A stretch of 40,006 nucleotides of DNA from a virus: the IMG/VR virus record IMGVR_UViG_3300045988_085556, positions 1 through 40,006 of that record; one strand, given 5' to 3'. The position numbers were made by a program, and so were the translations under genes. The notes below the pieces were generated by a model. The model saw only the letters and a program-made list of their open reading frames with translations, was not told the origin of the DNA and did not search any database. The stretch's first letter is position 1. The number at the start of each line of letters is the position of its first letter. Below, piece by piece: positions 100 through 7,512 of the stretch.

Positions 100-268
100 G
101 GAACGCTTCCCTTTTTTCACGAGTCATGCTTTTCTTTTCATCCTCAGAAAATCTCACATACTCCAAATCGGTTCTCAGCAAAAAGCATTCATGCGGAGAT
201 AACTCTTCTTTCCTATGTTCCTGCTCCTCTCTGGGCAACAGCAACCACTCGCGCGCCGTCAATGCCAT
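1..268 (-). CDS. 89-aa protein directly downstream of the MuF-toxin gene; candidate immunity protein (stop TGA spans the junction: bases 1, 39907, 39906)
   Basis: The ATG at 268 overlaps the MuF stop (ATGA) and has SD GGAGGAGG upstream. The frame is open to base 1. It is absent from the ORF track because the window edge cuts it. Translation MALTAREWLLLPREEQEHRKEELSPHECFLL...RLSEEVKQKK. Confidence 0.6.
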   Translation of the reverse strand, partial: MALTAREWLLLPREEQEHRKEELSPHECFLLRTDLEYVRFSEDEKKSMTREKREAFLHPREYAKEEKEAFEHQCKDIFKRLSEEVKQKK

Positions 269-1794
269 CACTCCACCTCCTCCAAAAGAATGTAATATTT
301 ATCGTCTTGTTTCACTTTATTTAGTACCTTAAATTTACTCATAACAGGATAAAGCACTTCTTTTTCCATATCGTTCATGTCACCTAAATCTTTGGCTTTT
401 TTAGCATTTTGAATATAAATCTGCACTTTGGCAGCCTCATCATAAAATCCCTCTTTTGTTGCAGATAAATATTGGCTTGGTATATATTCCTCACCTATTT
501 TCATTTTGTTATAAAAATTCTTTGCCTCTATATCATGAATAAAAATAAGCGATCGGTTTAAATCACCCTCATAATATGGTAATTTTTCTAATGCTTTATC
601 TAATTTTATTATCCAATCTTTTTCCGATTCTGTCAATGCCTCATGACGACGTAATTTATCATTTAACACATATGAATCAGGACTGACATAACGTATAATA
701 GCACCCTTTTCGTCTTGTGTAAGTTCCGCTATCTGTTGTGACCATATCTTCTCTTTACGCTTGTAATCTTCCCGATTATCACCATCTAACGAAAATCTTG
801 CCAACCTGCTATATTTTGCCTTCTGCCTTGCCACATACTGTTGCCTGGCCTCCTGCCTGCTCTGCTTCTCAATATCTGCCAGCTCCTGCCTGCTGAACTT
901 ATCATCCGGGGGAGTGCTGATGCCTGGAAAGTATGTAGTATGGCTATCCTTGCACCGTGGATGATATAGTCCTGCAGATATGGCAGAGCTCATGAGAGGA
1001 TAATCCCCATCTGCCTTGCTCCCGCCGCTCCAGACATCATCAATCAGCACCTTACCCACAAAAGGCAGGCACTTAGGACATGGATTCCCGCGCTTGTTCA
1101 TGATGACAAGATGCAGGCCCCACTCCTGCCGTTTCTGGCCCTCTCCCTGCAGGTATGCCCGCTTACTGGCCGTCCTGATTGCCATATCAGCATAATCAGA
1201 CAATGTGTGCCTGGCTCCATTGGCATACTCAACGCAATTAAGACCTGCAGACAGCATATCCTTTGTGGCCATATCCACAGCCTTTTCGTAGGTGCCAGCG
1301 CCGGTATTGGCATACACCTGGGCATTATAGATAATCTTACGATACTGGTCATTTGCCATACGCAAGACTGCCGTTTCGGCTTTCTGCATATCATCCGTGG
1401 TGGCTTTTATAAGGGCATCCAGTTTCCGGTCATTGATTTTAAAGAACTCAGCCGTTGCTCCCTTACTGATTTTCTTAGCGGGCAGACCTTTCTTTATAGC
1501 CCTCAATATTGCCTTTTCTTGGTCCATACCGCCTTGCTGATGAGCAGCATAGATCAGGGATTCGATTTCTTTGTTAATGTCTTTAAACTGCCCCTTAAAC
1601 CGCTTCTGATTATCCTTCTTGTAATTTTCCAGGGACTTAAGCTGCAAAGCCTGCCACTGTTCCCAGTGCATTCCCTCCGCATCCTCCCATGCACGATGAC
1701 GCTTCATATTGCGGACCATTGAGGCCATTAGCTCCTCCTCAATCGCCTGGAAGGCTTTACCGATGTCGTACTCATCATTAATCTTTCTTGCCAT
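268..1794 (-). CDS. MuF / SPP1 gp7-type head morphogenesis (minor capsid) protein with C-terminal ADP-ribosyltransferase-like toxin domain
   Basis: N-terminal and central MuF-like region (…GNPCPKCLPFVGKV…YHPRCKDSHTTYFPG). The C-terminal ~150 aa carry YVLNDKLRR, LNRSL, YLSATKEG (STS-like) and EKEVLYP (ExE) motifs. Confidence 0.85.
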   Translation of the reverse strand: MARKINDEYDIGKAFQAIEEELMASMVRNMKRHRAWEDAEGMHWEQWQALQLKSLENYKKDNQKRFKGQFKDINKEIESLIYAAHQQGGMDQEKAILRAIKKGLPAKKISKGATAEFFKINDRKLDALIKATTDDMQKAETAVLRMANDQYRKIIYNAQVYANTGAGTYEKAVDMATKDMLSAGLNCVEYANGARHTLSDYADMAIRTASKRAYLQGEGQKRQEWGLHLVIMNKRGNPCPKCLPFVGKVLIDDVWSGGSKADGDYPLMSSAISAGLYHPRCKDSHTTYFPGISTPPDDKFSRQELADIEKQSRQEARQQYVARQKAKYSRLARFSLDGDNREDYKRKEKIWSQQIAELTQDEKGAIIRYVSPDSYVLNDKLRRHEALTESEKDWIIKLDKALEKLPYYEGDLNRSLIFIHDIEAKNFYNKMKIGEEYIPSQYLSATKEGFYDEAAKVQIYIQNAKKAKDLGDMNDMEKEVLYPVMSKFKVLNKVKQDDKYYILLEEVE

Positions 1795-3578: not shown

Positions 3579-3809
3579 ATGCGAAGATATACAATGCCTT
3601 TTAATGGCAATCGCTATGTCTTAAATAGAGCCACCGGCGAAATTCATGATTTGGACAATGAAATGCCCAATTGTCAGATTGATGAAATCAAACCTGAAAA
3701 CATAATAAACTGCGCTAGTTATGAAGATGCCGCGCTAAGAGCGGCCTTTTTGTCAGTCAGGGGCGCAAATGGTTGTTATTACTGCAACCCATCTAAAGAC
3801 AATGGATAA
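3579..3809 (+). CDS. 76-aa Cys-containing protein (moron, antisense to the packaging operon)
   Basis: Strong SD AAAGGAAAGGAG and its own promoter. The pattern TGEIHD…C…GC..C.P resembles small Ada-like metal-binding proteins. Confidence 0.7.
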   Translation: MRRYTMPFNGNRYVLNRATGEIHDLDNEMPNCQIDEIKPENIINCASYEDAALRAAFLSVRGANGCYYCNPSKDNG

Positions 3810-3979
3810 TTGCCGGATTCAGCTACAGACCTCAATGTTTGTAGCTGTTCTTCTGATAACTCTGTTGCCAAAAACTCCGTAATATCGTCTGCATTCTTTT
3901 TATCATTCAATATGTCGCAAATCAGAGTTGAAAACTCCCTTACTCCTGTAACTGATTTAAGTGCTTCAAATCTTGTCAT
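3779..3979 (-). CDS. hypothetical 66-aa protein between terL and portal
   Basis: ATG at 3979 overlaps the terL stop (ATGA) and has SD GAGGAGG. The longer track ORF (to 4024) lacks an SD. Confidence 0.65.
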   Translation of the reverse strand: MTRFEALKSVTGVREFSTLICDILNDKKNADDITEFLATELSEEQLQTLRSVAESGNYPLSLDGLQ

Positions 3980-5340: not shown

Positions 5341-5780
5341 TATCCATCACCACGCATCTGCTGGATCAGGTCGTCCAGCTTTGTCTTCTCGGTATCCAGA
5401 CTTCCGGAGATGTTGGTATCCTGCTTTGTGGTATAGCCGTATTTGCTCATCCACAAGCCGGCCAACTGAGACGGAATCATCTGTAGCTCAAATTTCTTGC
5501 GGGCATCTACTTCGCATTCCTCCCTCATGCGCGTGACGATGTCAGTATATTTTTTCTTCTCTGCATAATTGCTGTAGAACTGTTGTCGTGAAATCCCTGC
5601 AAATGCGCAAAATCCTTCGATTGTATATGTGATACTACGACGCAACTCCTTACTGACAAACTCGCTGTTCTTTGAAGAGAAGTCATGGGTAAGAACCATC
5701 TGATTGTCACAATCCTCTTTGTACATTTCCCATTTCTCTTGCAGTTCTTCCGGGCTGCTAAACCGTAATTTTCTTCCCAT
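5340..5780 (-). CDS. terS: terminase small subunit
   Basis: 146 aa; the N-terminus MGRKLRFSSPEELQEKWEMYKEDC is typical of Firmicutes phage TerS; its stop overlaps the terL start. Confidence 0.8.
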   Translation of the reverse strand: MGRKLRFSSPEELQEKWEMYKEDCDNQMVLTHDFSSKNSEFVSKELRRSITYTIEGFCAFAGISRQQFYSNYAEKKKYTDIVTRMREECEVDARKKFELQMIPSQLAGLWMSKYGYTTKQDTNISGSLDTEKTKLDDLIQQMRGDG

Positions 5781-5840
5781 GATTTCACCTCACTTTCTGC
5801 ACGCAAAAGAGCCTACCCGATAGGCGGCTCCCACTCGTTG

Positions 5841-6107
5841 TTAATCTATATCTATCTTATTCAAAACATATTCATATTCTGCCTGCGGAATGCATACAAA
5901 ATCGCTATTTACGCCTCTCAAAACTTTATCTCCATTCCGCATCATCATTTCTCTTACACATGCCAAAGGGGCCTGCTCGCTTTTAAGTGTAGAGGGTACC
6001 CCCATTGGACCGCGCGGATCTCCCTCACTTGGCCTGCACAATGCTGCCAGCTCTGTGCTCATATCTACCAGGCATTCTTCTGTTCTTCCATATTTTCTTA
6101 CAAACAT
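5841..6107 (-). CDS. hypothetical 88-aa protein upstream of terS
   Basis: strong SD GAGGGAGG 6 nt upstream of the ATG. Confidence 0.6.
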   Translation of the reverse strand: MFVRKYGRTEECLVDMSTELAALCRPSEGDPRGPMGVPSTLKSEQAPLACVREMMMRNGDKVLRGVNSDFVCIPQAEYEYVLNKIDID

Positions 6108-6907
6108 GTTTTGCCTCCCTCTATGTCAAACCGCACGCAAAAACACCCAGCCAGCATATCGCTAACCAGGTGCCTCTGTTTCTTTTTTTCTGCCTTTCGG
6201 CGAAGCGGACGCATCCGGAATCGAACCGGAACCCAGGGCGCGACCCTGCCCATCTTCCATTGATGGTATGCTCCACACATTGCACCGCCGTAACGGTGCC
6301 GTTATCCCACACCCGGGACATGCGGTTTAAAGTATATGCACTGCAAACTTACCCCGGACACCAGGGAATCTTATGCTCTCTATAAACTGCTTGCACTTCC
6401 AGAGCACTACCCGTAATTGCCGGACTACTGCAATCACCGGCTAGTCTCATCTATTACGGATAAAGTTTTTTACAGCTTTATAGCATTGCAGGACTTCAAG
6501 CTGTGCAGAAATATGTTTTTCCGCTTTTGGTATCAGAACCCCCTCACAACTCCACCCAGGGACGTCTCCCATGTTCTTTACTCCGCGCCCGTTTTCTGGC
6601 CGTTGGTACCATGACAATGATACGGACGTTTTGCTTTTTATTTTTCGCTGGCAAGCCCCACATGCGTCACCAGCGGAGAGGTTGTAGTTAATCGGTTCCC
6701 CCGGCGGAGGGTTCACCTCACTCATAAAAATATATCAAGGAGTGACGGTTTTTGTGGCTTTATCCTCAAGGCACCGCCTGGCCTGATTCGGCTACCAGGC
6801 TATGACACCTGGCAGCCGTAACAAACGGAGGATAGTCAACATCCACGTGAGCCGTTTGCTTTCGCCCACTGGCTCTATTGTTATTATATATATGTTTTTT
6901 ATGCGTG
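6108..6907 (-). ncRNA. candidate large structured non-coding RNA / late-operon leader (ORF-free, helix-rich)
   Basis: There is no SD-preceded ORF in about 800 bp of an otherwise tightly packed genome. Many 5-7 bp helices are listed in the findings. A TATAAT (rc of 6873-6878) lies just after the late-activator stop, and a tRNA-like module sits at the 3' side. Confidence 0.35.
6207..6274 (-). ncRNA. 68-nt tRNA-shaped element with canonical T-arm (not a canonical tRNA)
   Basis: On the minus strand: TCCGG-TTCGATT-CCGGA T-arm, two further 5-bp hairpins (CCATC/GATGG, CAGGG/CCCTG), and an imperfect closing helix GGAGCA/TGC(G)TCC. Confidence 0.4.
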
Positions 6908-7327
6908 CTATGCGTTTTTAAGGAAATCATCAATCTTTCGGCTTATTCTGCTCTGGTCAAGATGGACTCTCTTTGCAATCTTAGTTTGGGTGGGCTTCTT
7001 ATCTCCCTCAGTATAATACAACTTGAAGATTCTCCTGGTCACGCTATCCCGAATATTTTCCACGAAGTCCTCCACCGCTTTGCACTCCTGCTCCAGCCTT
7101 TCCTTCCGCCGCATATCCCGATTCTGAAGCCGTTCATATCGTTCCTGGTCAAAACCAGCCACCCCTTCTGGTATCGGATACCCTTTCTTGTAATTCAGGA
7201 TCGTGTCAACACTTATCATAGATTCGCTTTTCCAGCGATTCCTCAGGATATAGTCCAGCTCTTTTATTTCTTGCTTTTTACTCCTGTATGATATCAGCAT
7301 TTCTTTTGTCATCCTCATTGCGCTCAC
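6908..7327 (-). CDS. late-gene transcriptional activator, sigma-70 region-4-like HTH (RinA/ArpU/DUF1492-type)
   Basis: The C-terminal RIFKLYYTEG…TQTKIAKRVHLDQSRISRKI resembles a sigma region 4 HTH, and the gene lies just upstream of the packaging genes. Confidence 0.7.
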   Translation of the reverse strand: MSAMRMTKEMLISYRSKKQEIKELDYILRNRWKSESMISVDTILNYKKGYPIPEGVAGFDQERYERLQNRDMRRKERLEQECKAVEDFVENIRDSVTRRIFKLYYTEGDKKPTQTKIAKRVHLDQSRISRKIDDFLKNA

Positions 7328-7512
7328 CTCCCGTACCAGTACCGTTTCCCGCTCTTCCGGTCCTCCAGCTCTACACTTTTAATCCTCAATCCCACCATCC
7401 CCGCAACCAGCTTGAGTGTATGTACCACGTCCATGATGTGTTTGGGCAGCCTGTCCGCCTCATAGATTGCTTTGCCGGCCGTGTTATCTGTATATCCTTC
7501 ACCGTTTTTCAT
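7324..7512 (-). CDS. hypothetical 62-aa protein
   Basis: ORF overlaps its neighbours by 4 nt on both sides. Confidence 0.6.
   Translation of the reverse strand: MKNGEGYTDNTAGKAIYEADRLPKHIMDVVHTLKLVAGMVGLRIKSVELEDRKSGKRYWYGR

Follow-up and report, generated by a model that had tools for sequence, protein, structure and literature searches.

Introduction

In phage lambda, the Q gene lies directly upstream of the late leader, which has the order pR', qut, 6S RNA and tR'; the short transcript ends at this terminator, before the late genes. In lambdoid Stx phages, tRNA genes and stx lie downstream of pR'. The put RNA of phage HK022 consists of paired hairpins near the promoter and upstream of terminators, and acts on its own transcript. 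Here, we analyse a gap ahead of the late genes in a 40,006-nucleotide (nt) stretch of viral DNA, IMG/VR record IMGVR_UViG_3300045988_085556, the whole of which we call the window and to which all coordinates refer. The gap (Table 1) lies between a small regulator gene and the first late gene, and the leader, the regulator and the late genes are all on the minus strand. We consider it probable, though well short of certain, that this gap is the late-operon leader of a temperate Lachnospiraceae phage of the Blautia type, enlarged by inserted RNA cargo, and that the late genes are reached by read-through of a terminator.

The Ltr activators of Gram-positive phages comprise RinA, ArpU, LtrA (Sigma70_r4), LtrB (DUF1492) and LtrC (PMC3753634, PMC3152322), and in their published layout the ltr gene is followed by an inferred terminator and then by the terS promoter (PMC3753634). 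Several kinds of non-coding RNA also bear on the gap. ROOL (RF03087) and GOLLD are hundreds of nucleotides long, non-coding and found beside tRNAs in prophages of Firmicutes (PMC5737381, PMC12286853). Candidate structured RNAs (csRNAs) of at most 151 nt have been catalogued from human gut phages of Blautia and Ruminococcus (e.g. DNAVirus_6425 and DNAVirus_6426 from Blautia phages) and show high expression in small-RNA sequencing (Fremin et al., 2023; PMC10690425). UG27 arrays combine a UG27 reverse transcriptase and two accessory genes with repeated units of ~150 nt (bioRxiv 10.64898/2026.09.22.753630). An initial annotation of the window had proposed that the gap holds one large structured RNA, perhaps of the ROOL/GOLLD class, and had named an antitermination leader and an extended pac region as alternatives.

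Predicted promoter and terminator at the two ends of the gap

For comparison, we collected ~250 related loci by scanning IMG/VR, GTDB genomes and metagenomes with search patterns (loci are designated by L-numbers such as L001 and L109). The named hosts among them are Blautia producta DSM 2950 (two loci), B. celeris, Herbinix, Anaerocolumna, and metagenome-assembled genomes of Lachnospiraceae and Eubacteriales.

The initial annotation had noted a TATAAT with a poor -35 right after the late regulator gene. This placement of the promoter is borne out, with the element itself ten bases away from the position that had been given (6883-6888 rather than 6873-6878). To count as a sigma-A-type promoter in relatives, a site had to have an extended -10 or match at least 10 of the 12 sigma-A consensus positions, with its -10 lying 36-91 nt upstream of the hairpin that we call module A (see below). 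Such a promoter is predicted in 43 of 62 distinct relatives (69%) vs 9.4% of control windows, and the leader promoters of some relatives are a perfect TTGACA-17-TATAAT.

In 29/29 loci examined, module A lies 50-150 nt past a gene of 98-190 amino acids (aa) on the same strand, and most of these genes encode a product with a C-terminal helix-turn-helix resembling sigma region 4. Of ten relatives' regulators that were scanned, two matched Sigma70_r4 and one DUF1492, with the majority left without an assignment. The window's regulator (139 aa, minus strand, ending at 6908) matches phrog_36, 'transcriptional regulator', in a PHROG scan and has no Pfam match; its C-terminus shares 44% identity with a relative's Sigma70_r4 protein.

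At the other end of the gap stands a predicted intrinsic terminator, its stem (6172-6144) preceded by an A tract. The region folds better than shuffled sequence (6125-6204, z = -4.08) and a separate scan scored it at -16.8 kcal/mol; a simple scan tool misses the hairpin. The hairpin is conserved in L006, L008, L042, L123, L126, L127 and L129 with its pairing kept, the changes between relatives (read by eye) being U-G to C-G and A-U to G-U. The distance from the U tract to the Shine-Dalgarno sequence preceding the first late open reading frame (ORF) is only ~20 nt. Among the 62 distinct loci, ~20 have a predicted terminator 9-70 nt (mostly ~30-45 nt) before the first late ORF, which is usually terS; most of the others gave ambiguous calls, in which an ORF was picked spuriously, no terminator turned up or the distance was longer. 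A terminator so near the first late ORF leaves no room for a promoter, and the late genes would hence be transcribed through the terminator.

Four loci (L123, L126, L127 and L129) consist of nothing but this frame: a promoter, an A-rich leader of ~20 nt, a terminator of the window's type, a Shine-Dalgarno sequence and terS. As read from sequence, this layout is the bare frame that received the window's cargo. Because these close relatives keep the terminator without module A, module A is not required for the promoter-terminator frame. The four loci were traced via a 62-aa upstream protein, and the bare frame lies at ~3600-3950 in each.

Module A and the 5' leader

Between the promoter and module A, the window has two leader hairpins, the second of which (6825-6848) bears an anti-Shine-Dalgarno-like CCUCC at 6827-6831. 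The fold of 6786-6876 has a free energy of -43.8 kcal/mol (z = -5.25). CCUCC or a close variant is found 5' of module A in most relatives, L249 keeps the first hairpin as GAGCC/GGUUC with a different loop, and phages of Ruminococcus gnavus have a leader that differs from the window's.

On the evidence of covariation, module A and the tRNA-like element described below are conserved, strand-specific structures. A covariance model of module A (R1) scores 53.3 bits on the window (E = 1.8e-13), where it has a single copy and no other strong match; true copies score at least 34.6 bits and chance matches at most 22 bits. Across 41 distinct sequences, 97.3% of cells are paired and 18 cells are changed on both sides, which none of 500 shuffles equalled; when the structure is shifted by 1-3 columns, no more than 53% of cells pair. 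Since the 5' arm and the loop (UGUCAYAG across relatives) are set by the search pattern, only the two free positions and the 3' arm count as independent evidence. The stem-pair count among distinct pattern matches is bimodal, with chance matches peaking at 4-6 pairs and a sharp second maximum at 10. Several stem positions are mostly G-U; such frequent G-U pairs point to a strand-specific RNA hairpin rather than a DNA palindrome.

Module A occurs on ~45 viral contigs and at ~22 loci of species-representative genomes, and is conserved with covariation in Blautia, Herbinix, Anaerocolumna and other Lachnospiraceae. A blastn search of the module A region against cultured phages gave no match. The hairpin (6808-6817/6790-6799) had been missed by the initial annotation, which listed a competing pair (6776-6781/6795-6800).

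Cargo between module A and the terminator

The loci differ in what they carry between these conserved parts. From module A to a 3' motif that we call E, we found 25 distinct variants of 111-659 nt. L109 equals the window minus module D. L249 has the same promoter, link and module C at ~78% identity but no D, and a tRNA-Asn plus a second cloverleaf-like tRNA sequence stand where the window has its tRNA-like element. Blautia phage Montmirail matches window positions 6511-6277 over 235 nt at 96% identity and then continues directly with a true tRNA-Asn. L117 and L231 carry motif E without module A, many other loci carry module A without E, and in many loci nothing but a C-rich spacer and a terminator comes after module A. 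The modules also occur beside several different terS types. On this comparison, the modules are independent and shuffled between phages, within a conserved frame of promoter, terminator and late gene.

The changes in the link and in module C of L249, read by eye, keep or improve the predicted helices. Module C was found on 13 of 2.9 million IMG/VR contigs and is non-coding, given the 1-nt indels among relatives. One position within it is occupied by hairpins of four unrelated sequences among the copies. A long-range helix predicted in module C by RNAalifold was discarded, since by eye it is not kept in the divergent copy L187, where a local hairpin is improved instead. Directly 5' of module C, within the link, lies a -10-like element at 6729-6737 (minus strand) that is kept in three contexts, as TGATATATT in the window, TGTATAAT in L003, L004 and L086, and TAATATAAT in L249. 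An internal promoter may be located here. One metagenome contig (L239, OGCU01001733.1) holds three type I-C-like CRISPR repeats (ATTTCAATCCACACCACCGCGAAGGTGGTGAC) in its positions 1-260, with spacers of 33-35 nt, and past the last repeat runs on as phage leader from the start of module C. This looks like an assembly joined via a spacer against this non-coding region.

Module D was found on 9 of 2.9 million IMG/VR contigs and is absent from the closest relative, L109. All nine distinct copies, including the one in Blautia phage Montmirail, are at least 97% identical, and near-identical copies are found in phages with different flanks. Pattern scans of IMG/VR and of the fetched genome and metagenome loci yielded only near-identical copies, and the structure of module D is for this reason not assessable by covariation. 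The view of the initial annotation that the gap contains structured RNA is supported.

The stem closing the X hairpin and motif E varies between GCGG/CCGC, GCAG/CUGC and GUGG/CCGC (read by eye), and the window's GCAG/CCGC has one A-C mismatch. Hairpin F precedes the tRNA slot in the window and likewise stands 5' of a true tRNA-Asn in L001, L004, L005, L010 and L249.

The tRNA-shaped element that the initial annotation had noted at 6207-6274 is present, and its cloverleaf fold is conserved. It has a bulged 9-bp acceptor stem, a consensus T loop and a short 'anticodon' loop that varies between CGC and CAC among copies. Six homologues have 97.1% of cells paired, with four pairs changed on both sides. 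The element stays below the Rfam threshold (best match tRNA-Sec, 18.2 bits vs a gathering score of 47), and ARAGORN is inconsistent, calling an 83-nt 'tRNA-Pro' in the window, a 'tRNA-Val' in L109 and nothing in L086, L121, L135 and L194. Read as nine acceptor and four T-stem pairs, it would have a tRNA-Sec-like 13-bp acceptor/T stack; the long variable arm and the UCA anticodon of tRNA-Sec are both missing. In R. gnavus phages, a 'tRNA-Ala(cgc)' right after the RinA gene is homologous to the element, and true tRNAs (tRNA-Asn, tRNA-Ile and others) fill the same slot in other relatives. A further conserved non-coding module (GCUUAUCUGCCGCCGG..GGGGUAAGC) lies ~100 nt past the tRNA slot in L063, L112, L018, L032, L001 and L003. 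Judged by eye, its fold looks like a four-way junction. The window lacks this module, and Rfam gave no match to it.

Table 1. Positions of the gap and of the features predicted within and around it (coordinates of the 40,006-nt window).
Feature	Position	Strand	Basis or description
Gap under study	6108-6907	minus	between regulator stop (6908) and ATG 6107
-10 element TATAAT, poor -35	6883..6888	minus	sequence read directly
5' leader hairpins	6825..6875	minus	GAGCC..GGCUC hairpin 6849-6875; second hairpin 6825-6848
Module A, 10-bp hairpin, loop UGUCAUAG	6790..6817	minus	covariance model and covariation
Link module	6726..6789	minus	100% identical in L109
Module C	6520..6725	minus	conserved 5' and 3' parts around variable hairpins
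Module D, 159-nt insert	6353..6511	minus	near-invariant among copies
X hairpin and 3' motif E (AUGUCCCGGGUGUGGGAUAA, 6302-6321)	6302..6352	minus	common to 25 A-to-E variants
Hairpin F (GCACCG..CGGUGC)	6282..6299	minus	directly 5' of tRNA slot
Non-canonical tRNA-like cloverleaf	6205..6276	minus	minimum-free-energy fold
GAAA-capped hairpin	6192..6201	minus	fold and sequence read
Predicted intrinsic terminator	6139..6172	minus	12-bp stem, four G-U pairs, loop GAUAU, UUUUU (6139-6143)
Shine-Dalgarno sequence GGGAGG (6114-6119) and ATG (6105-6107) of 88-aa first late ORF	6105..6119	minus	sequence read

Coding content and folding of the gap

The gap is a non-coding stretch heading the late operon, and the earlier view that it contains no credible ORF stands. 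Its mechanical ORFs have no Pfam or PHROG match. The longest (6447..6725, minus strand, 92 aa) was ruled out as a gene, as it is interrupted by a stop around codon 26 in L003, is missing from L001 and L006, and has its frame broken by 1-nt indels in relatives within otherwise conserved sequence. Module D contains a 33-aa ORF (6349-6450, minus strand), in the nine copies of which four of five substitutions fall at third codon positions and two are synonymous. This ORF was also rejected as a gene; it has no Shine-Dalgarno sequence, and its ATG is ATA in L006 and L130.

The initial annotation had described the gap as richer in GC than its surroundings and dense in helices. The first holds overall (0.50 vs 0.45 for the window) but not for most of the gap, since the rise is confined to 6108-6300 (0.56) and 6521-6726 (0.54). 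The second holds for the region as a whole, which folds better than its shuffles on the minus strand (z = -4.1; plus strand, z = -2.1), but not for its interior, since the excess is located at both ends, in the 5' leader and the terminator region. No exceptional folding was found for module D (6380-6519 folded, z = -0.97), for X, E and F (z = -1.35) or for the tRNA-like element (z = -1.67). The six complementary pairs and the GCCGAAAGGC GNRA hairpin that the annotation had listed were all found where it placed them, and most of its helices fall within module D.

Searches for known families and surrounding genes

Rfam 15 gave no match at gathering score in the window, and a search of 5700-7400 at E <= 10 returned only the sub-threshold tRNA-Sec at 6205-6276. 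In 38 related loci, Rfam matched only tRNAs and, elsewhere in two of the loci, an unrelated GP20-b motif. The suggested membership of ROOL/GOLLD thus finds no backing in the window or in these 38 loci. A UG27-type array of non-coding RNAs was rejected as well: the eight long ORFs scanned contain no reverse-transcriptase domain (Pfam), no long ORF adjoins the gap and the modules are not repeats. The leader modules may overlap the csRNAs of Fremin et al., for which that study gave neither a function nor a locus layout.

The window encodes an integrase, and the genome is of the prophage type. The gap is followed, in order, by the 88-aa ORF (ATG 6107), terS (GP3_package, phrog_606) and terL. The 88-aa ORF (5841..6107, minus strand) has no family match, and a second terminator-like hairpin (5825-5811) lies beyond it. 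In the nearest relative, L042, this ORF is absent and terS directly follows the terminator, which makes the ORF look like a moron-type insertion. Further along, 268-1794 (minus strand) encodes a protein in which a minor capsid protein 2 domain is joined to an ADP-ribosyltransferase exoenzyme domain.

A proposed reading of the leader and its rivals

If the gap is an enlarged late leader, as we favour, transcription would start at the promoter directly after the Ltr-type regulator gene. The transcript would pass the leader hairpins and module A, the link, C, D, X/E, F and the tRNA-like cloverleaf, and would then, ~20 nt short of the first late gene's Shine-Dalgarno sequence, meet the strong predicted terminator. 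The unit from promoter to terminator would yield one or more discrete non-coding transcripts, and the tRNA-like element (or the true tRNAs of relatives) could supply RNase P and RNase Z processing sites that free the upstream RNA. The late genes would need read-through of the terminator, possibly with the help of the upstream regulator, by analogy with lambda Q at pR'-tR'.

Several points weigh against this. The window's promoter has a -10 element only, and a simple scan tool did not call a promoter there. The -10-like element kept before module C suggests that there may be more than one transcription unit. Module D does not fold beyond expectation and varies too little for its structure to be tested, and the diversity of module A is under-sampled because the collecting pattern fixes its 5' arm and loop. 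Ltr proteins, moreover, are described as promoter activators and not as antiterminators (PMC3753634), and we found nothing relevant in the literature on antitermination in Ltr or RinA phages.

A wider version of the enlarged-leader reading is more speculative, and we would sooner bet against it than for it. It holds that the late operon of Ltr-type gut Lachnospiraceae phages is gated by a terminator between a largely constitutive sigma-A promoter and terS, with antitermination by the Ltr protein or an RNA element acting rather than, or besides, promoter activation. The interval would then be a cargo bay for several new RNA families, among them a widespread 34-nt hairpin motif beside an anti-Shine-Dalgarno-like sequence and a near-invariant 159-nt module with a trans role of its own, for example in host translation or defence.

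It seems unlikely that the gap instead encodes one large ornate RNA of the ROOL/GOLLD kind, with the variants being insertions and deletions of domains around an A-to-E core. Its length of ~700 nt, the prophage setting and the tRNA neighbours fit the published context of these RNAs (PMC5737381), modules A and E co-occur around variable inserts in the 25 variants, and the region as a whole beats its shuffles. However, the parts occur independently and are differently combined in relatives, with A lacking E at many loci, E lacking A in L117 and L231, and D missing from the nearest relative, L109. We also found no long-range pairing between modules, the one predicted within C fails in L187, the interior modules fold no better than shuffles, and Rfam has no match even at E <= 10, all of which speaks against the single large structured RNA of the initial annotation. 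The idea that module A and the CCUCC hairpin form a put-like RNA, driving RNA polymerase through the terminator in cis with the other modules as passengers, also strikes us as improbable. There are indeed two hairpins 36-91 nt past the -10, followed by a terminator before the late genes, and conservation is far stronger in module A than among the diverse upstream regulators, which points to a conserved host partner. Yet close relatives with the same terminator and terS do entirely without module A, which weakens its case as an obligatory antiterminator, and the window has a single copy of it.

C-rich regions of the Firmicute small RNAs (sRNAs) RoxS and RsaE pair with the ribosome-binding sites of mRNAs, and the gap could in principle be an enlarged gene for a trans-acting sRNA whose C-rich, anti-Shine-Dalgarno-like motifs pair with ribosome-binding sites of host or phage. 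The minimal relatives would suit such a gene, being 120-150 nt of promoter, CCUCC hairpin, module A, C-rich spacer (e.g. CCCUCACUCCCCC) and terminator, and module C contains CCCUCC and CCUCUCC too. We nevertheless regard it as quite improbable, since the frequency of CCUCC in the region is about that expected by chance (a rough estimate), CCUCC lies partly within stems, and the interval from terminator to terS usually lacks a promoter, which ties the unit to the late operon. Very unlikely, finally, is a decayed tRNA island or neutral spacer without a function of its own, or a DNA site such as pac or a binding site of the regulator. Relatives do have true tRNAs in the slot, the acceptor stem of the tRNA-like copy in the window is bulged, and the 'anticodon' differs between copies; against decay stand the near-identity of module D between phages with differing flanks and the covariation of module A across the Lachnospiraceae genera. 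As for a DNA palindrome or the extended pac region of the initial annotation, the G-U pairs of module A and the terminator would be A-C mismatches on the opposite strand and the modules are found with several terS types, on which grounds we rejected it.

Comparison with known systems

Blautia and other Lachnospiraceae are abundant commensals of the human gut, and the locus adds several unannotated conserved RNA elements for their phages. As tRNAs do, these elements collect in one defined slot heading the late operon. With promoter, terminator and terS in a conserved order, late control in Ltr phages becomes a testable matter of activation or antitermination. Blautia phage Montmirail and Blautia producta DSM 2950 with its prophages provide cultured systems for this.

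Like ROOL and GOLLD, the gap lies in a prophage-type genome, with a tRNA-like element inside and true tRNAs in the slot in relatives. It differs from them in having no match in Rfam, which is taken to include both, and in its independent parts. As to one conserved multi-junction fold with pseudoknots, no long-range helix that would favour it found support. In layout the gap resembles HK022 put, from which it differs in that relatives with the window-type terminator do without module A. It resembles the Ltr systems in that a small gene of the Ltr family shares the strand of the terS region and lies just ahead of it. The published Ltr order nonetheless differs from that of the window, which runs ltr, promoter, RNA cargo, terminator and terS, leaving a promoter no space between the last two. 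Among the alternatives of the initial annotation, the antitermination leader comes closest to what the comparison gives, with its promoter, terminator and late genes, although not in having a regulator of the Q family. The late leader of lambda differs accordingly, in that the window's regulator is of the Ltr or sigma-region-4 type and not a Q homologue, and its cargo consists of unannotated structured RNA modules. What the two leaders share is the sequence of regulator, promoter, intrinsic terminator and late genes, none with a promoter after the terminator, and an interval in which tRNAs and other cargo gather.

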